This document shows, one piece after another, positions 2,671 to 62,744 of a DNA stretch of 64,000 nucleotides; position 1 is the stretch's first letter; every line of letters begins with the position of its first letter. The notes beneath the pieces were generated by a model. That model had not been told where the DNA came from. It searched no databases and saw only the letters and a list, made by a program, of their open reading frames with translations. Position numbers and translations under genes: made by a program. Where the stretch lies: NCBI GenBank assembly GCA_965250285.1, contig OZ252299.1, positions 1,536,001 through 1,600,000 of the forward strand, written 5' to 3'. The stretch is from Myxococcota bacterium (GTDB taxonomy: Bacteria > Myxococcota_A > UBA9160 > UBA4427).

Positions 2671-3211
2671 TTCGGCGCTCGCGCGGTACAGCGGTTGGCT
2701 GCGCGCGCTCGCGTTCATCGCGATCACGGTGCCGCTCACGTGGTGGTGGATGCACGGCGGCGCCGACGCCTACATGGCGTTCTTCAAGCAGACCGCGACG
2801 CCGATCTTCAAACTGCTCGGCGTCACCAACTATCCGCCGAGCGCCGTACGGGATCGCTTCATCGGCTTCGTTCCGTTCATCGCCCTGATGGCGATCACGC
2901 CGGGGCTCGATCTGTCGAGGCGCATCGGCGCGGTGCTGATCGCGTTTCCGATCGTCTTCCTGTGCCAGATCGCGCTGGTCTACGCCGTGTTCAAGATCGT
3001 GGTGCAGGGCGGGGGCTGGAACGACCAGACGCGCGTCGCGCTGTTTCCGTTCACGGTGCTCTTCGACGGCTTGCCGCTCTTGCTCTGGGCGGTCTTCGCG
3101 CACGAGTTCCTGGCCGATCAGCTGAAGAAGATCATTCCCGCCGAAGCGGGCAGCCCGGGCGAGCCACGCCCGCCGGAGGAATCTGGTGAGCCCGGGGAGC
3201 CGCGCGACTAG
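2657..3211 (+). CDS. Exosortase-associated membrane protein
   Basis: About 4 TM helices; overlaps the exosortase stop; PFIALMAITP segment. Confidence 0.6.
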   Translation: MPPPDSALARYSGWLRALAFIAITVPLTWWWMHGGADAYMAFFKQTATPIFKLLGVTNYPPSAVRDRFIGFVPFIALMAITPGLDLSRRIGAVLIAFPIVFLCQIALVYAVFKIVVQGGGWNDQTRVALFPFTVLFDGLPLLLWAVFAHEFLADQLKKIIPAEAGSPGEPRPPEESGEPGEPRD

Positions 3212-3234
3212 AGAACCGCGGCACGGTCCGCCGT

Positions 3235-3521
3235 GCCTGCCCCGGCCTCGGTCCGCCGTGCCAGGGCCGGGGCAGGCGGGGGCACCGTGCTCAGACATTC
3301 TCGGCGCGACCTGCCTTGGAAGCTCGTATGTGGCGCACGTCGCGCCTGCGAACTGCGCGCGGTCCCCCCGCCTGCCCCGGCCTCGGTCCGCCGTGCCAGG
3401 GCCGGGGCAGGCGGGGGCACCGTGCTCAGACATTCTCGGCGCGACCTGCCTGGGAAGCTCGTATGTTTCGCACGTCGCGCCTGCGAACTGCGCGCGGTCC
3501 CCCCGCCTGCCCCGGCCTCGG
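3235..3521. repeat. 135-bp tandem repeat (2 units plus partial) with internal 18-bp inverted repeats; REP/BIME-like
   Basis: gcctgccccggcctcgg recurs at 3235, 3370, 3505; cccccgcctgccccggcc pairs with ggccggggcaggcggggg; lies between convergent genes. Confidence 0.9.
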
Positions 3522-3592
3522 AAGGCTTCGGTCGCAGCGCGGCACGCTCGGCGCTGTTCTCGCGTGCGTGGGGCGCGTTCTGCAGAGGCTCC

Positions 3593-19054: not shown

Positions 19055-19315
19055 GTCGATGGGTCCCTCGACTCGCTCGCCCCAGCCGGCACTCGAGCCT
19101 CCACGCGTTGGATGCCGGATGGCGCCGCTCCGGTGCGAGCCCCGTGTCGCACCGCGTGCCCCTTTGCGCGGCGCAGCCGCCGGCCGGCGCTTGCTGCACG
19201 AGTTGAGAGCGATGCCGGCCCGGACGGGTTCCATGATCGCGCCGATGACACCGCTCGCGCGGCTCCACGGCTGGACCCGGGTCGAGGTCGCGGGCTCGCC
19301 CCCTCGATCGGCGGA

Positions 19316-19399
19316 TCAGACCGTGTGCGGGTCGGGGCCAGAGAAGATGCCGTCGATTCAGACCGGGTGCGGTTCGGGGCCGGGGAAGATCTCGTCGAT
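19316..19399 (-). repeat. 42-bp duplication of the AKR gene 3' end including its stop codon
   Basis: tcagaccgtgtgcgggtcggggccagagaagatgccgtcgat (19316) vs tcagaccgggtgcggttcggggccggggaagatctcgtcgat (19358). Confidence 0.8.
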
Positions 19400-52697: not shown

Positions 52698-53738
52698 ATG
52701 CTCCATGAAGCCTTCGAAGCCGCCGTCCTCGGGCCGGGGATCGCGCGGCGGCATTGCCTCGTGGCCGTGTCGGGCGGCGTCGACTCGGTCGCACTGCTGC
52801 ACGGTCTCGTCGAGCTGCGCGCGCGCGCCGAGCTGGATCTCACGGTGGCCCATGTGCATCACGGTCTCCGCGGCGAAGAGGCCGACGGGGACGAGGCGTT
52901 CGTGCGCGCGCTCGCCGGGGATCTCGACGTCGCCTTCGTCCAGGCGCGCGTCGAGCCCGCCGTGCTTCGCGAGTCGGGCCCGAAGCGCGCTCGGCCCACA
53001 CTTCAGGAGGCGGCGCGCCGGCTGCGCTGGGAGGCGCTCGAGGCCCTTCGCCAGCGCGTCGACGCCGATGCGATCGTCACGGCTCACCATCTCGATGACC
53101 AGGCCGAGACCGTCCTGATGCGGCTCTTCCGCGGCACGTCGCCCGAAGGTCTCGGCGGGATGGCACCCGTGTCCGAGGACGGGCGACGCGTGCGTCCCCT
53201 GCTCGATGTGAGCCGCAGCGAGATCGAGGCCTGGGCGCGATCGCGGGGTCTGCGCTGGCGCGAGGACGCGAGCAACGAGAGCGACGCGTACACGCGCAAT
53301 CGCCTGCGTCGGCGCTGGATCCCCGGTCTTTCCGCAGACTTCAACCCACAATTGCTCAGGGCTGTGGCCAGACTGGCCGAAGCACAGAGAACGGATTCGG
53401 CGTGGATCGACACCGCCGTGCGCGAGATCGAGCCCGACTGGGTCGGGGTCGATCGGGGCGCGCGGGTGCTCCGGCTGGAGGGCTGGGGAGATCTGCCGAA
53501 CGCGCTGGCCCGGCGCCTCGTCGCTCGGGCCGTTTCCGACCTCGGGGGTGGGCGTGACCTCAGCGCGAAGCACATCGATCGGGTGCTCGAGTTCCTCGCT
53601 TCGCCCGAACGGCACGAGGGCGGGCGAAGCCTCGAGCTTCCGGGCGGAATCAGACTCACACGCGCAGCGAAGCAGTGGCGGCTCCACGCGGCGGACGAGA
53701 CGTCTCGCCATCGACCTGCTCCGAAGCGCGACGCCTGA
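52698..53738 (+). CDS. tilS: tRNA(Ile)-lysidine synthetase
   Basis: AVSGGVDS, HVHHGLRG, AHHLDDQAET, RPLL, EDASN...RNRLR. Confidence 0.93.
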   Translation: MLHEAFEAAVLGPGIARRHCLVAVSGGVDSVALLHGLVELRARAELDLTVAHVHHGLRGEEADGDEAFVRALAGDLDVAFVQARVEPAVLRESGPKRARPTLQEAARRLRWEALEALRQRVDADAIVTAHHLDDQAETVLMRLFRGTSPEGLGGMAPVSEDGRRVRPLLDVSRSEIEAWARSRGLRWREDASNESDAYTRNRLRRRWIPGLSADFNPQLLRAVARLAEAQRTDSAWIDTAVREIEPDWVGVDRGARVLRLEGWGDLPNALARRLVARAVSDLGGGRDLSAKHIDRVLEFLASPERHEGGRSLELPGGIRLTRAAKQWRLHAADETSRHRPAPKRDA

Positions 53739-54098
53739 GCCGCGAACCCGGACCATGGGTGCCCGGGTCGGGGCTGAAACAGCGCCCACCGAGGTTGGAC
53801 GGCCCGCCGCGACACGTCGGGGCCGGGTCCACACGCGCATGCTAGGCTACGCCACTGTGCTGGAAGACTTTTTCGCCGACGTGCCCCACGGGGCCCGGCC
53901 GCTGAACCCCGCGGCCCGGCCGAGCATCCATTCGCCTGGGGACAGCACCACTCTCTTGCTCGCGACCCCATCCGGTCGCGAGATTCGGGCTCGGCGCGAC
54001 ACGCCGCGGCCCACCATCGAGTCGCCCGCACCGCGGGTCCCGGTCGGACCCGAAGCCTCTCGCGCGTGGCCCCGACCACGCGCCACCGAGGAGCTCAA

Positions 54099-56039
<1,941 letters not shown>

Positions 56040-56093
56040 TCGGCCGATGTCGCGCGGGACCGCCCCTGCGCGGTCCGACCGAAGGAGGATCCC

Positions 56094-56954
56094 TTGCTGA
56101 CCGCGTCGATCTTCCCGTCGGATCGGGTCACGGTGATGGGGGTCGTGAACCTCACGCCGGATTCGTTCTCGGACGGGGGGCGGCTCACGCGGGCGGCGAC
56201 CGGGACCGACGTCGAGGCCGCACTGCGACACGCTGCCGCCCTGGTGGCGGCCGGCGCCCATGTGCTCGACGTGGGCGGCGAGTCGACTCGCCCCGGGGCC
56301 GGTGAGGTTCCGGTCGAAGAGGAGCGAGCGCGCGTCGAGGCCGCGATTCGGGCGCTGGCCGCGGCGGTCGACGTGCCCATCTCGATCGATACGCGCAAGG
56401 CCGAGGTCGCACGCGCGGCCATCGCGGCCGGGGCCGGGCTGGTGAACGACGTCTCCGGGCTGGCCTTCGATCCCGCGCTGGCCGAGGTCGTCGCCGAGAG
56501 CGGGGCCGGCCTCGTCCTGGGCCATGCCCGGGGCACCCCCGACGTGATGCAGAGCCGGGCCGATTACGACGACGTGCTCGCCGAGGTCGCACGTGAGCTC
56601 GAAGTCTCGGTCGAGGTGGCCCTCGCGGCCGGCGTGGCTCGAAATCACCTCGCCATCGACCCGGGGATCGGATTCGGCAAGCAGCTCGATGCCAACCTCG
56701 AGCTGATGGCTCACGTCAGCTGGCTGAAGAGCCGATTCGAACTCCCAGTGCTTGTGGGGCCCTCGCGCAAGGCCTTTCTGGGGCACCTGACCGGCGCCCC
56801 GGTCGACGAGCGCGACGCCGCCACGGCGGAGGTCTGCGCCGTGCTGGCCTTCGCCGGCGCCGACGCGGTGAGAGTGCACGACGTGCGGGGCGCGAGTCGT
56901 GCGGTGAAGCTCGGACGCGCGCTCAAGGACGCGCGCCGCAAGGAGCTGTCGTGA
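56094..56954 (+). CDS. folP: Dihydropteroate synthase
   Basis: MGVVNLTPDSFSDGG, GGESTRPG, DPGIGFGK, GPSRK, VRVHDV. Confidence 0.96.
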   Translation: MLTASIFPSDRVTVMGVVNLTPDSFSDGGRLTRAATGTDVEAALRHAAALVAAGAHVLDVGGESTRPGAGEVPVEEERARVEAAIRALAAAVDVPISIDTRKAEVARAAIAAGAGLVNDVSGLAFDPALAEVVAESGAGLVLGHARGTPDVMQSRADYDDVLAEVARELEVSVEVALAAGVARNHLAIDPGIGFGKQLDANLELMAHVSWLKSRFELPVLVGPSRKAFLGHLTGAPVDERDAATAEVCAVLAFAGADAVRVHDVRGASRAVKLGRALKDARRKELS

Positions 56955-57271
56955 TCGAGGTGACCTTCGAAGCCTCGCGTGAGAAGATCGGACGCGCGCT
57001 CGAGGACGCGCGCCGACAGGAGCTGTCGTGATCGAGGCGACCTTCGAAGCCTCGCGTGAGAAGATCGGACGCGCGCTCGAGGGTGCGCGCCGCGAGGAAT
57101 CGTCGTGATCCACGTGACCTTCGAAGCCTCGCGTGAGAAGATCGGACGCGCGCTCGAGGATGCGCGCCGCGAGGAATCGTCGTGATCCACGTGACCTTCG
57201 ACGCCTCGCGTGAGAAGATCGGACGCGCGCTCGAGGGAGCGCGCCGCAAGGAACCGTCGTGATCCAGGTGA
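56907..57271 (+). repeat. 77-bp tandem array (~4.7 units) duplicating the folP/cdaA junction
   Basis: tcggacgcgcgctc recurs at 56911, 56988, 57065, 57142, 57219. Confidence 0.95.
56951..57262 (+). other. Four chained 26-codon mini-ORFs (56951-57031, 57028-57108, 57105-57185, 57182-57262)
   Basis: Each starts at a GTG overlapping the previous TGA and follows an AGGA(G) RBS; peptides like MIEVTFEASREKIGRALEDARRQELS; translation not shown. Confidence 0.5.
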
Positions 57272-58143
57272 TCCTGAACTTCCTGCGCGAGCTCGCCGAC
57301 TTCTTCAAGGCGAACTTCGATCCGTGGCGTGACAGCGTCGATATCCTGCTCGTCACGCTGGGGATCTACTGGCTGTTGCTGCTGATCCGCGGCACGCGCG
57401 CCGTGCAGATCCTCGTCGGCCTGATCGTCCTGATCGCCCTCAGTCTCGCCTCCGAGCTCTTCCAGTTCGTGACGACCAAGCTGATCCTCGAGAACTTCCT
57501 CGGGTCGGCCGTGTTGATCATCATCGTGCTCTTCCAGCACGACATACGGCGCGCGCTCGCGCGGGTGGGGCGCGGCTTCTTCCCGTCGGTGTCGGCCCAG
57601 CAGGAGTCGCAGCTCCTCGAAGAGCTGGTCCGCGCTGCCCAGTCGCTCGCTGACCGACGCGTCGGCGCGCTGATGGTGATCGAGCGGGAGAGCTCGCTGG
57701 CCGATCAGATCGACGCGGGCACGCCCGTCAACGCCGACCTCAGCAAGGATCTGCTCGAGTCGCTCTTCAATACGAGCTCGCCGCTGCACGATGGCGCGGT
57801 GATCATCCGCGACGGGCGCATCGCGAGTGCCGGCTGCATTCTGCCGCTCACGCTGCGGACCGATCTGCCCGACGGTGTCGGGACGCGTCACCGGGCGGCC
57901 GTCGGCATCACCGAAGAGACCGACGCCGTCGTGATCGTCGTGTCGGAAGAGACCTCGAAGATCGCCGTCGTGATGGGCGGTGAGATGATCCATGGCCTCG
58001 AGGCGCCCGAGCTGCGGCGCGTGCTCTACGACATCATGGCCGGCGATCGGCGAGATCTGCTCGCCGAGAGCGAGTCGGGCGCCCCCGCCGCCGTATCGGA
58101 CATCGACGAAGCCGATGCGCCGGTCGAGCGCACGGCGGGTTGA
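57259..58143 (+). CDS. cdaA: Diadenylate cyclase
   Basis: 3 N-terminal TMs; SPLHDGAV, GTRHRAAVG, VVSEE. Confidence 0.95.
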   Translation: MIQVILNFLRELADFFKANFDPWRDSVDILLVTLGIYWLLLLIRGTRAVQILVGLIVLIALSLASELFQFVTTKLILENFLGSAVLIIIVLFQHDIRRALARVGRGFFPSVSAQQESQLLEELVRAAQSLADRRVGALMVIERESSLADQIDAGTPVNADLSKDLLESLFNTSSPLHDGAVIIRDGRIASAGCILPLTLRTDLPDGVGTRHRAAVGITEETDAVVIVVSEETSKIAVVMGGEMIHGLEAPELRRVLYDIMAGDRRDLLAESESGAPAAVSDIDEADAPVERTAG

Positions 58144-58862
58144 GCGACATGATGCGTTGGTTCCTCAACCTGAGACCCGGCCTGCTGCTGCTGGCGCTGG
58201 CGATCGCCACCTTTCTGTGGGTGATCGCGCACGAGTCGACGAGTGTCGAGCGCACGTTCGACATTCCGGTCGAGCTGCACCGGCTCGACGAGTCGCTGGT
58301 CGTGACCGACCAGAACGTCGATGGCGTGAACGTCCGCGTGATGGGCAGCCGGGCCGCGCTCAACAACCTCGACGAGAAGGGCCTGCGCTACGCGATCGAT
58401 GTGTCGGGCGCGAAGCCCGGCGTCGCCGTGTTCGACGTCGAGCTCTCTCGGCTCGATCTCCCGACGGGAGCCCGCTTCATCAGTCGCTCGCCTGCGCAGG
58501 TCAAGGTGCGCTTCGAGAAGAGTGGCCGGAAGGCGGTGCGCGTGAACCCCGACGTGACGGGTACGCCGGCTCCCGGGTATCACCTGGCTGGTCTCGTGAT
58601 CGAGCCGCAGAAGGTGTGGCTCGCCGGCGCCCGCAGTCAGGTCATGCGCCTCGAAGAGGTCTCGACCGAGTCGATCGACATCGATGGGTTGAAGGACAGC
58701 GAGACGCGCGAGGTGAGGCTCGTGCTGGGCGGAGGCACGCTCTGGGTCGAAGACGACGCGCCGGTGAAGGTGCAGATTCGCATGGAGCCCGACCTGCTGC
58801 CTGATGAAGAGGTGCTGCCGCCGGGTGCGTCGCCGGCCGGTGAAGTGACGGTCGAGGGCTGA
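58140..58862 (+). CDS. cdaR: CdaR/YbbR family regulator
   Basis: LALAIATFLW TM; two YbbR-like repeats; sits between cdaA and glmM. Confidence 0.85.
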   Translation: MSDMMRWFLNLRPGLLLLALAIATFLWVIAHESTSVERTFDIPVELHRLDESLVVTDQNVDGVNVRVMGSRAALNNLDEKGLRYAIDVSGAKPGVAVFDVELSRLDLPTGARFISRSPAQVKVRFEKSGRKAVRVNPDVTGTPAPGYHLAGLVIEPQKVWLAGARSQVMRLEEVSTESIDIDGLKDSETREVRLVLGGGTLWVEDDAPVKVQIRMEPDLLPDEEVLPPGASPAGEVTVEG

Positions 58863-58956
58863 CACCCTGTGGCGCGATCCGGGCACTCACCCGGGAGCCG
58901 GACGCCCGGCAGCGCATGCGCAGCAGCGGCGCAATCAATCTGGGGACGAGGAATCG

Positions 58957-60324
58957 ATGGCGGACAAGCGGAAGCTCTTTGGGACGGACGGCGTGCGGGG
59001 CCGCGCCAACGTGCACCCGATGACGGCCGAGATGGCGCTCAAGCTCGGGCAGGCCGTTGCGCATCACTTTCGCGGTCGCGAGCGGGGCCGTCACCGGATC
59101 CTGATCGGCAAGGACACGCGACTCTCGGGCTACATGTTCGAAGACGCCCTCGCGGCCGGCATCTGCTCGATGGGCGTCGACGTGATTCAGGTCGGCCCGA
59201 TGCCGACGCCGGCCTTGGCCTTCCTGACGACCGACATGCGATGCGACGCCGGCGTGATGATCACCGCCAGCCACAATCCGTATCAGGACAACGGCATCAA
59301 GTTCTTCGGCCGCGACGGCTTCAAGCTCGACGACGCCATCGAACTCGAGATCGAACGCATGGTCGAGAGCGGCGAGCTCGAGGGGGCGCGCGCCGGCGCT
59401 GACGAGATCGGCCAGGCCCGCCGCATCGACGACGCCGAGGGCCGCTATGTCGTCTTCCTGAAGAACACCTTCCCTCACGACATCACGCTCGAGGGGCTTC
59501 GGATCGTGCTCGACTGCGCCCATGGCGCGGCCTACAAGGTCGGGCCGACCGTGCTCGAGGAGCTCGGCGCCGAAGTGTTTGCGCAAGGCGTGACGCCGAA
59601 TGGTCGCAACATCAACGACGAATGCGGCTCGCTGCATCCCAACGCGACGGCGAGCCGCGTGCGCGAGGTGCGCGCCGACATCGGCATCGCGCTCGATGGA
59701 GACGCCGATCGGGTGATGATCGTCGACGAGCGGGGCGAGGTGCTCGATGGTGATCTGGTCATCTCGCTCTGCGCGCGCCACCTGATGGAGCGCGGCGCGC
59801 TCAAGGGGGGCGGCGTCGTGACCACGGTGATGAGCAATCTCGGTCTCGAGGAAGAGCTCGAGAAGCTCGGCCTCGCCCTCGTGCGCACGCAGGTCGGCGA
59901 CCGCTATGTCGTCGAGGCGATGCGCGCCGGCGGCTACAACCTCGGCGGCGAGCAGTCGGGCCACGTCGTGTTCCTCGATCACGGCCGCACGGGCGACGGT
60001 CTGATGACGGCGCTGCAGGTGCTCGCGATCCTCGCCCGTTCGAAGAAGCCGCTCTCGGAGCTCGCCGCCGGCTTCAACCGCTATCCCCAGGTGATGGTCA
60101 ACGTCGGCGTATCGACCAAGCGACCGATCGAAGATCTGCCGCGCGTGCAGGACGCGATCGCCGAGGTCGAGGCGAAGCTCGAGGGCCGCGGCCGGGTGCT
60201 GATTCGCTACAGCGGCACCGAGAACAAGGCGCGCGTGATGGTCGAGGGCGAAGAAGAGAGCGATGTGACCGAGTACGCGAACGTGCTCGCTGCGACCCTC
60301 AAGGAGTCCCTCGCCGCCGGCTGA
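58957..60324 (+). CDS. glmM: Phosphoglucosamine mutase
   Basis: FGTDGVRG, ITASHNP, DGDADR, GGEQSGH, RYSGTE. Confidence 0.97.
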   Translation: MADKRKLFGTDGVRGRANVHPMTAEMALKLGQAVAHHFRGRERGRHRILIGKDTRLSGYMFEDALAAGICSMGVDVIQVGPMPTPALAFLTTDMRCDAGVMITASHNPYQDNGIKFFGRDGFKLDDAIELEIERMVESGELEGARAGADEIGQARRIDDAEGRYVVFLKNTFPHDITLEGLRIVLDCAHGAAYKVGPTVLEELGAEVFAQGVTPNGRNINDECGSLHPNATASRVREVRADIGIALDGDADRVMIVDERGEVLDGDLVISLCARHLMERGALKGGGVVTTVMSNLGLEEELEKLGLALVRTQVGDRYVVEAMRAGGYNLGGEQSGHVVFLDHGRTGDGLMTALQVLAILARSKKPLSELAAGFNRYPQVMVNVGVSTKRPIEDLPRVQDAIAEVEAKLEGRGRVLIRYSGTENKARVMVEGEEESDVTEYANVLAATLKESLAAG

Positions 60325-60480
60325 TGGGATCCCTGGCGCAAGCGGTCGCGCTCGTCCCGGCCGATCTTCGCTGACTCGCCGTGCTCGGTGGTGCGCCGGG
60401 TTGAGTCGGAGACCGGCGAGCGTCACTCTCTGGGCGACACGCAGGGCCGGCTTCTCGGGCTGCGTTTCGCGGAGACGCCG

Positions 60481-62157
60481 ATGATCGAGTCCGGCTTCTG
60501 GCCTCTCGTGAGCGCGGCGCGCATGCGCGCGCTCGACGCGCACACCATCGACGAGCTGGGTGTTCCGAGCGAAGTGCTCATGGAGAGCGCCGGCCGTGCG
60601 GTGGTCGAACACCTGGCCGCGCACGCGCACGAGCGGGTGGCCGCCGGCGCCCGGGTCGAGCTCGTCTGCGGGCCGGGGCACAACGGCGGTGATGGCCTCG
60701 TGGTCGCGCGCCATCTGCATCTCATGGGCTGGCCCTGCCGGGCCTGGCTCGTGGGCGACCGTGCGCGTCTCGGCTTGACCGTCGCGGCACAGCTCGGCCG
60801 AGCCGAGGCCGTGGGCGTGCGCGTCGAGGGAGCGGCCGACGGTCGATTGTCACTCGACGCCGATGCGATCGTCGTCGACGCGCTCTTCGGCACCGGGCTC
60901 AGTCGCCCGGTCGAGGGGGCCGCCGCGGTCGCGATCCAGGCGATCGGGGCCGCGCGCGCTGCGGGGGCCCACGTCGTCGCCGTCGACCTGCCGTCGGGCA
61001 TCGAGACGGATACGGGCGCGGTGCTCGGCGCGGCGGTCGAGGCGGACGAGACCGTCACGATCTCGCTGCCCAAGGCGGGGCTCGCGCTGCCTCCTGGCCG
61101 CACGCGTGCGGGCCGCGTCTCCGTCGCGCGCGTCGGCATCGTCGACGCGCTGCCGGGCGACCCCGATCCGGTCGAGGGGGTGGCTCGGCTCCACACCCGA
61201 GCGGGCCTGGCCGCGATGCTGCCCGCGCGCCCCAACGCCGGCCACAAGGGCCGCTTTGGTCACGTGCTCGTCGCCGCCGGCAGTGAAGGCAAGACGGGGG
61301 CCGCGGCGCTGGCGGCCCACGCAGCCATGCGGGCCGGTGCCGGCCTCGTCACACTCGCCTGTGCCGAGGGTCTGAATGACATCCTCGAGGTGAAGTGCAC
61401 CGAGGCGATGACCGCGCCGGTCGGAGAGGCCGGCGCGCGGTGGCTCGCCGTCGACGCCGCCGAGGCCATCGGTGCGCTGGCGCGTGAGCGCGACGTCCTC
61501 GCGCTCGGGCCCGGGCTCGGCACCGAGGAGACGACGGGTCGGCTCGTTCGGGCGTTGTGTGACGAGGTCGCACAACCGCTGGTGCTCGACGCCGACGGGC
61601 TCAATGCGCTGGGTCGCGAGCTCGGGGTGCTGAAGGGGCGACCCGGGCCGACCGTGCTGACGCCCCATCCGGGTGAGGCCGCGCGGCTGCTCGGGACCAG
61701 CGCCGCTGAGGTGAACGCCGATCGCGTCGGTGCGGCCCGGGCCCTCGCCGCGGGCGCCGAGTCGGTCGTGGTGCTCAAGGGCGCCGGGACGGTCGTGGCG
61801 GACGCGGATGGCCGGGTGCGCATCAATCCGACGGGCAACCCGGCGCTGGGCTCGGGCGGGACGGGCGATGTACTCACAGGCGTCGTCGCGGCGCACCTCG
61901 CCCAGGGGCTCGCGCCCCTCGACGCCGCGTCGACCGCCGTGTATCTGCATGGCGCAGCCGCCGACGCCTGGGCCGAGCAGCACGGTGAGGCGGGGCTCGC
62001 CGCGCGTGATCTCGCCGAATGGCTCCCCGAAACGGCGCATCGCCTGCGGCTCGGTGACGCGATCGGCGCATCGACGCCCGAGTCGCCCGGCTCGGCCTTC
62101 GACGCAGGGAGAGCGCGTGTCGAGCGCACACTGCTTCCGTTCCCGTTCGGCGTCTGA
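60481..62157 (+). CDS. nnr: Bifunctional NAD(P)H-hydrate epimerase/dehydratase (NnrE-NnrD)
   Basis: LMESAG, GHNGGDG, DALFGTG, HKGRFG, DADGLN, TPHPGE, GGTGDVL. Confidence 0.93.
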   Translation: MIESGFWPLVSAARMRALDAHTIDELGVPSEVLMESAGRAVVEHLAAHAHERVAAGARVELVCGPGHNGGDGLVVARHLHLMGWPCRAWLVGDRARLGLTVAAQLGRAEAVGVRVEGAADGRLSLDADAIVVDALFGTGLSRPVEGAAAVAIQAIGAARAAGAHVVAVDLPSGIETDTGAVLGAAVEADETVTISLPKAGLALPPGRTRAGRVSVARVGIVDALPGDPDPVEGVARLHTRAGLAAMLPARPNAGHKGRFGHVLVAAGSEGKTGAAALAAHAAMRAGAGLVTLACAEGLNDILEVKCTEAMTAPVGEAGARWLAVDAAEAIGALARERDVLALGPGLGTEETTGRLVRALCDEVAQPLVLDADGLNALGRELGVLKGRPGPTVLTPHPGEAARLLGTSAAEVNADRVGAARALAAGAESVVVLKGAGTVVADADGRVRINPTGNPALGSGGTGDVLTGVVAAHLAQGLAPLDAASTAVYLHGAAADAWAEQHGEAGLAARDLAEWLPETAHRLRLGDAIGASTPESPGSAFDAGRARVERTLLPFPFGV

Positions 62158-62620
62158 AACCCAGGCGCTCGGCCAGGCGCTTGGGTCGGTGCTGGCCGCG
62201 GCGCGCGACCGTGGCCTCGTCATCGCCCTCGACGGCGACCTCGGCGCGGGCAAGACCGTCTTCGTGAAAGGGCTCGCGACCGGGCTCGGGGGCGCGGCCG
62301 ATCTCGTGTCGAGTCCGACGTTCGTGATCGCCCAGCGCTACGACGACGGCGCGCTGCGGCTCCACCATGTCGATCTCTATCGGATCGAGGACGAGTCGGA
62401 GCTCGACGGCTTCGGCTTCGACGAAATGCTCGATCCACCCGCGGTGGCGGCCATCGAGTGGTCGTGTCGCTTTCCGCAGGCGTTGCCGCGAGATCATCTG
62501 GCGGTCGCCATTGCGCGCGACGCGAAGGGCGGCGACGACGGGCGATGCCTCGAGGTCGAATCGCGCGGTCCCCGCTCGTCGGCCACCCTGGCGGCCTGGC
62601 GGGCGCGCGTCGCCGTCTGA
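62117..62620 (+). CDS. tsaE: tRNA t6A biosynthesis ATPase
   Basis: GDLGAGKT, VSSPTF, HVDLYRI, AIEW. Confidence 0.92.
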   Translation: MSSAHCFRSRSASETQALGQALGSVLAAARDRGLVIALDGDLGAGKTVFVKGLATGLGGAADLVSSPTFVIAQRYDDGALRLHHVDLYRIEDESELDGFGFDEMLDPPAVAAIEWSCRFPQALPRDHLAVAIARDAKGGDDGRCLEVESRGPRSSATLAAWRARVAV

Positions 62621-62744
62621 CTCAGCGCAGGGCGTCGCCGTCGGACTCAGCGCCGGGCGTCGCCGGCTGAATCGGAGCGGCCCACCACGGGCCGATCCGG
62701 CGCGGGGCGTGGCCGTCTGATCCAGCGCGGGGCGTCGCCGGCCG
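62607..62744 (+). repeat. Degenerate 25-bp tandem repeat starting in the tsaE stop region
   Basis: gcgtcgccgtctgactcagcgcagg-like units at 62607, 62632, 62657, (62682), 62707, 62732. Confidence 0.75.

Follow-up and report, generated by a model that had tools for sequence, protein, structure and literature searches.

One type of MIRU (mycobacterial interspersed repetitive unit), a repeat whose layout is among the nearest to that of the locus described here, is 77 bp long. The MIRU of Supply et al. (1997), as summarised in the part of PMC12548453 available to us, is a short repeat within operons, and its ORF and the gene that follows are coupled at a spacing of -4. According to the same text, MIRUs are a mobile family inserting at start codons, and they are thought to leave the expression of the downstream gene nearly unchanged (PMC12548453). 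Termination-reinitiation at NTGA overlaps, including the delivery of ribosomes by short ORFs, is also described there, with a coupling that drops as the spacing increases to 30-40 nt (PMC12548453). The second comparable case comes from Subirana and Messeguer (2021), who described tandem repeats of constant size and variable sequence in Bacillus and other bacteria; in the accessible part of their paper (PMC8161180), the units measure 20-21 and 52 nt, with a few of 40-41 nt, they form motif-sharing families and are read as selected, and a nucleoid or small-RNA role is proposed for the Bacillus repeats of 20-21 and 52 nt. In the literature outside subscription papers and supplements, neither locally made junction relays nor a ladder of unit lengths at one and two times a common step was found, and these two systems came nearest. 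Here, we describe a tandem array between folP and the diadenylate cyclase gene cdaA in an uncultured Myxococcota-type bacterium. We consider it likely that this array is a local duplication made by a mutational process with a step of about 39 or 78 bases, and that it has been kept functionless since translational coupling would survive it.

The window, i.e., the whole stretch of 64,000 nucleotides that was analysed, belongs to a genome (G000) that consists of a single 6.25 Mb contig with 68.6% GC, and the features from ftsH to glmM that are given in window positions below lie on the + strand. The operon order is tilS, ftsH, folP, cdaA, a YbbR-domain cdaR-like gene, and glmM. The ftsH gene (54066-56039; TIGR01241, 866 bits) is located upstream of folP, which encodes dihydropteroate synthase (56094-56954; TIGR01496, 289 bits, cut-off 162.6), while cdaA (57259-58143; TIGR00159, 226.7 bits, cut-off 188.8) is followed by the cdaR-like gene (58140-58862, exact start uncertain; PF07949) and glmM (58957-60324; TIGR01455, 617 bits). 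Between folP and cdaA, TRF reported an array with a period of 77, 4.8 copies, 92% matches, and zero indels at 56906-57271, in agreement with the earlier note, made from the letters of this DNA, which had counted about 4.7 repeats. The four chained GTG mini-ORFs of 26 codons described in that note were found at the same positions and with the same peptides: u1 (56951-57031), u2 (57028-57108), u3 (57105-57185), and u4 (57182-57262). The folP stop ends at 56954 in the first GTGA, the TGA of each mini-ORF overlaps the next GTG, and that of u4 overlaps the GTG of cdaA at 57259. Each start is preceded by a Shine-Dalgarno (SD)-like motif, namely AGGAG for u1 and u2, at a distance of 5 nt, and for u3, u4, and cdaA the weaker AGGA(A), at a distance of 6 nt, within the 5-7 nt noted before. 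Rfam gave zero matches in 53500-60500, and neither a sigma-70 promoter nor an intrinsic terminator was found in 55900-57500.

The array is confirmed to be real. Contigs from three runs (X1-X3) reproduce unit-specific stretches and unit-unit junctions without any other letters, the units differ from each other pairwise at 4-9 positions, and a second species has the same unit sizes and one insert in common. That the repeat is an artefact of assembly or sequencing, a doubt which the earlier note had raised, was not borne out and is the least probable of all the explanations weighed here, although the whole array is covered by no contig and X1-X3 are runs of one study, possibly the source. The contigs of X1, X2, X3, and X5 break inside the array, and no length variants or joints were seen among them.

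Alignment resolves the 77-bp unit into two parents. Unit bases 1-33 correspond to the first 33 bases of cdaA (57259-57291; also by gap-free comparison), and unit bases 34-77 derive from the 44 bases at the end of folP that precede the GTGA (56907-56950; also by blastn of u1 33-77 and by difference counts), including the SD AGGAG. The earlier description of the peptides as a CdaA-like start joined to a FolP end, with a shared middle that has diverged from both parents, holds: the units differ from cdaA at 10-12/33 bases and from folP at 4-8/48 bases. Since most of the differences from cdaA are common to all four units, one chimeric copy probably drifted before it was multiplied. Comparison of the junction among relatives, as the earlier note had proposed, covered 29 cdaA loci; folP is adjacent in 23, and the six loci without folP in the flank were set aside. 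The two genes join directly in 23/23 (21 at -4 and two within 8 nt), and the 77-bp array was found in none of them, including G001, a member of the same genus, which has the identical SD and GTGA. Because the plain junction of relatives already has this SD and GTGA, both would simply have been copied into each unit, and the alignments indicate that the array is made of copies of the ancestral stop/start overlap.

These results allow a closer comparison with MIRU. An intergenic unit with a small ORF that overlaps the neighboring stop and start at -4 is found here, too. The two differ in that no interspersed family exists here (no full-length copy of the unit was found elsewhere by blastn, and the best outside match is 33 nt with an E of 0.003), and in that the folP-cdaA unit is built from its own flanking genes and not from a foreign mobile sequence. 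Relays in this genome also use the phases -4, -1, and -8, a further difference from MIRU, while the same spacings are a likeness to termination-reinitiation coupling as treated in the available part of PMC12548453. A difference from that coupling is that nothing found here points to control by the peptide or by a signal of any kind.

The earlier note also offered the units as a source of amphipathic micropeptides. The ORFs are four in number, intact, and provided with SD-like motifs, and their best 11-residue hydrophobic moment (0.73-0.80) is reached by 4-12% of shuffles. However, the FolP C-terminal helix has a moment of 0.82, from which that of the peptides is apparently inherited, and of the 13 changes among the units, 10 are non-synonymous and only 3 synonymous (dN/dS ~1.15). 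No NCBIfam match was obtained for u1 and u4, and the peptides are not conserved in relatives. Selection on the peptides is not supported, none being evident in the substitutions, and a function as micropeptides is very improbable. By the criterion of a conserved peptide or of regulatory codons, the units do not behave as leader peptides or regulatory uORFs either, given the same dN/dS and the lack of the array in all 23 relatives. The units have gained neither stops nor indels, as the earlier note had rightly seen; the absence of stops requires no special cause because the chance of zero stops over the 30 observed changes is ~0.26 under neutrality. Annotators are thereby warned against taking such mini-ORFs for genes of small proteins.

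Junctions of this kind are not limited to folP-cdaA. Genome-wide tests were made on 5146 genes from our own simple gene caller, on which starts and ends rest, and on 250 arrays from our own repeat finder at 80% identity. Eleven arrays passed the overlap test, among which eight close as relays, one forms a repeat at the N-terminus in frame, and two are doubtful, resting on TTG starts distant from the called start. The closing units measure 26, 35, 35, 41, 43, 77, 80, and 83 bp, and the unit length is always the one that the phase needs. In a frame-blind similarity test of 2642 gene pairs, 13 matches scored at least 21, compared with 0.2 expected; 10 close as mini-ORFs (one of them at a -8 TAG), two are in frame, and one uncouples (p 0.006; leaving out the folP-cdaA array and luxE-luxC gives p 0.02). 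The 10 rows scoring 19-20, near the chance level, were set aside. In total, about ten relays were found, including ruvC-ruvA, rplO-secY, pdhA-pdhB (pyruvate dehydrogenase-type E1 alpha-beta), prcB-prcA (proteasome beta-alpha), an EthD gene-pepN, and luxE-luxC. The overlap is -4 in 5/5 relatives for ruvC-ruvA, -1 or -4 in 4/4 for rplO-secY, and -4 in 3/4 for prcB-prcA, where G001 has the 80-bp insert in common with G000. Ancestral spacings were mixed at pdhA-pdhB (+1/-4), ethD-pepN (-4 only in G001), and the pair at 4687 kb (+4/+31), and these three pairs were set aside. In G035, a member of another family, one possible uncoupler (spacing 64, 14/26 flanking matches) stands against three closers and one in-frame case.

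Two side observations concern these junctions. In this lineage, the proteasome genes prcB and prcA, for subunits of the beta and alpha type, lie side by side (PF00227; G000:C1:3419977-3421570), and their 80-bp duplication is old, with a 27-codon ORF that is open in both G000 and G001 and a diverged middle. A 27-bp junction duplication at G000:C1:1348073-1348225 extends the gene downstream of it, in that gene's frame, by about five N-terminal repeats of 9 residues.

Convergent gene ends give a neutral expectation of 6.5 closers and 6.5 uncouplers, and eight and zero, respectively, were seen at overlaps. With closers as frequent as under neutrality and uncouplers missing, closers seem to be tolerated rather than favored, and frame-breakers seem to be purged. 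Passage of ribosomes through such mini-ORFs is indirectly supported by this frame filter. The relay proposed in the earlier note is indirectly supported by the 10 closing, two in-frame, and one uncoupling matches; the part of that proposal which saw in it a possible tuner of CdaA is not supported. If the array were a tuner of CdaA/CdaR/GlmM output, selected and variable in copy number, it would be well placed directly upstream of cdaA-cdaR-glmM; at the cdaA start, the change of the SD from AGGAG to AGGAA has weakened the duplex (-7.2 to -4.9 kcal/mol), and coupling efficiency is stated to vary with spacing and context in the accessible part of PMC12548453. Yet the array is peculiar to this genome among the relatives compared, the same layout occurs at unrelated operons, closers are found only at the neutral rate, and zero length variants were seen among the contigs examined, none of which covers the whole array. 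We regard such a tuner as quite unlikely, and a dedicated c-di-AMP regulator role for the relay is not supported. For c-di-AMP biology, the relay is of little consequence, being a by-product. Neutral amplification, the third option of the earlier note, fits best once the frame filter is added. The set of duplications is rather a natural test, indicating selection for coupled translation where genes overlap, in an uncultured bacterium of the Myxococcota type.

One further test was dropped as support for relays. Without regard to similarity, 76/105 spacings between RTGA codons are 3n+2, but relatives without non-triplet arrays, which served as controls, show the same excess (5/6 in G016 and 5/6 in G018/G005/G020). 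In samples of G016, G018, G005, G020, G031, and G035, short ORFs that connect a stop with a start, both of them RTGA, occur at about two per 100 co-directional pairs. They are in excess in array-free relatives, too, and this may be caused by frameshifts near gene ends or by caller bias.

Under local duplication with a frame filter, the history of the folP-cdaA array would run as follows. A head-to-tail duplication of 77 bases would have spanned the ancestral folP/cdaA GTGA overlap, and the one chimeric copy that arose would have drifted and then expanded by slippage or unequal exchange. A 3n+2 unit placed across a -4 overlap would close by itself into an ORF that brings an SD, a start, and a stop along, whereas with a 3n+1 unit, ribosomes would cross the downstream start in the wrong frame, and such units would be purged. 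As coupling falls when the spacing grows to 30-40 nt, duplications that do not close would cost expression. Termination-reinitiation would then run through all four ORFs, with a side effect on the CdaA level that is presumably small at most.

The length of the unit appears to follow a genome-wide pattern. Among 76 arrays with non-triplet units of 28-170 bp, 55 have units of 32-47 bp (mean 39.0, sd 3.7), 14 have units of 70-84 bp (mean 77.6, sd 3.0), and only one falls between them at 48-69 bp. Units at 70-84 bp are not dimers in which a shorter unit is hidden. The best length step, with the dispersed family described below removed, is 39.0, which was reached by 0/2000 exponential nulls. The ladder is well filled only at one and two times this step, 158 bp being a single case, and a smaller group of units is present at 19-26 bp. 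Units of 119 and 146 bp were rejected as third and fourth rungs because they are members of a dispersed family. This palindrome-rich family of 119-146 bp, REP-like by eye, occupies about 28 loci, sometimes in tandem, one of which lies in the window at 3201-3558 (G000:C1:1539201). In an all-against-all blastn, 141/146 units were without a relative among the others. The doublet at 39 and 78 bp, made of unrelated units of local origin, turns the choice between a mutational ruler and selection into a testable question.

Arrays sit at insertion-tolerant places. Inside genes, 59/60 have triplet units; 55 arrays span a stop, five span a start, and five span both, and the numbers per junction are 0.050 for convergent, 0.021 for co-directional, and 0.013 for divergent pairs. 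This distribution bears on the possibility that the 39/78-base length is itself selected for a nucleoid or small-RNA role and is not set by mutation. Such selection would be in keeping with the narrow modes of unrelated sequences, with the folding of the units, which is slightly stronger than that of matched gene ends (p 0.03; -0.200 vs -0.182 kcal/mol/nt), and with the prcB-prcA insert, whose length has stayed at 80 bp in both G000 and G001 although its central part has diverged. We nevertheless judge it unlikely because every junction array examined copies local flanking DNA, often half coding, unit lengths are alike at overlaps, at convergent ends, and inside genes, and four close relatives are without such arrays. 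The comparison with Subirana and Messeguer (2021), as far as the accessible part of PMC8161180 goes, is similar. In both cases, there are many repeats that agree in unit length but differ in sequence, and these are specific to a species and unevenly distributed among its relatives, while the modes here are 39 and its double 78 instead of 20-21 or 52 nt, the blastn comparison reveals no shared families, an edge motif at array borders was found in none of 320 tests, and the units are traceable to their local flanks. Unrelated units that are traceable to local flanks point to a mutational ruler.

Judging from relatives, the process is patchy and its step lineage-dependent. G001 has units of 36, 38, and 39 bp within 213 kb sampled, and in G035, 12/15 arrays in 600 kb have units of 30-36 bp, with a peak near 33. 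Four genomes of the same family have no non-triplet arrays of at least 28 bp in 800 kb, compared with 9.7 expected.

What sets the step is less certain than the duplication itself. Our tentative answer, quite possibly right though we would not call it probable, is that a replication or repair machine duplicates chromosomal DNA of any sequence in lengths that are whole multiples of its fixed footprint, 39 bp in this genome and ~33 bp in a related family. If this is true, constant-size bacterial repeats would be scars left by a molecular ruler instead of elements under selection. The relay between folP and cdaA would then be such a scar, two steps long, that has come through the filter of translational coupling. 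The single-stranded DNA-binding protein SSB has, as a tetramer, a 35-nt binding mode. A more specific form, our best guess but a rather doubtful one, equates the ruler with the footprint of a protein on a single-stranded intermediate of replication or repair, most likely a flap or loop wrapped by SSB. In the least certain step of the mechanism, a displaced flap or loop would be wrapped by one or two SSB tetramers and left untrimmed where recJ is not found. A possible model is provided by the flap duplications of yeast, involving rad27/FEN1, RPA, and Dna2, in which a protein that binds single-stranded DNA protects long flaps: flaps >30 nt bound by RPA resist FEN1 (PMC3035468, in the part available). 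That system differs in being eukaryotic, and no stepwise unit length is reported in the same part of the source (PMC3035468). A recJ match (TIGR00644) was found in 0/41 genomes of the order and in 106/151 genomes of the phylum sample, and recJ-positive controls, which are small, gave one non-triplet array (85 bp) in 400 kb. Several points disfavor the SSB/recJ step. The four same-family genomes without non-triplet arrays are without a recJ match, too, and xseA is present. There is no significant strand bias (40/71 on lagging-strand genes, p 0.055) and no edge motif, and in E. coli the loss of recJ left stress-induced amplification unaffected (PMC1428787, in the accessible part). Junction microhomology gave no clean reading, with overhangs spread from -11 to 50.

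Other candidates for the ruler were rejected. Loss of mismatch repair does not apply, mutS being intact; motifs of mutL and polA are present, and the N-terminal nuclease region of PolA is present by eye. Ku, reverse transcriptase, and Y1 transposase were not found in G000, and helical multiples of 10.5 bp do not fit, with 52-63 bp being empty. The histone fold PF00808 was not found in G000 or its family (0/25), and a protein with this fold occurs in 13/16 genomes of other families of the order. Cas1 does not track with the arrays: it was not found in G001 or G035 and is present in G018, which has zero non-triplet arrays in 200 kb. The cas1 of G000 (PF01867, 147 bits; G000:C1:3245666-3246523) is a solo gene, for which two repeat scans found no CRISPR array, and five tandem paralogues of a putative exported protein of 160-170 aa adjoin it at 3242021-3245023.

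Array density also varies along the chromosome, reaching 16-20 per 500 kb around the inferred origin (~4.89 Mb) and terminus (~1.70 Mb), compared with 4-11 per 500 kb at 2.0-4.5 Mb. Within the window, 25-bp units lie on the stop codon after a tsaE-like gene, named by eye, at 62602-62744, and a 42-bp duplication lies on a stop codon at 19312-19399.
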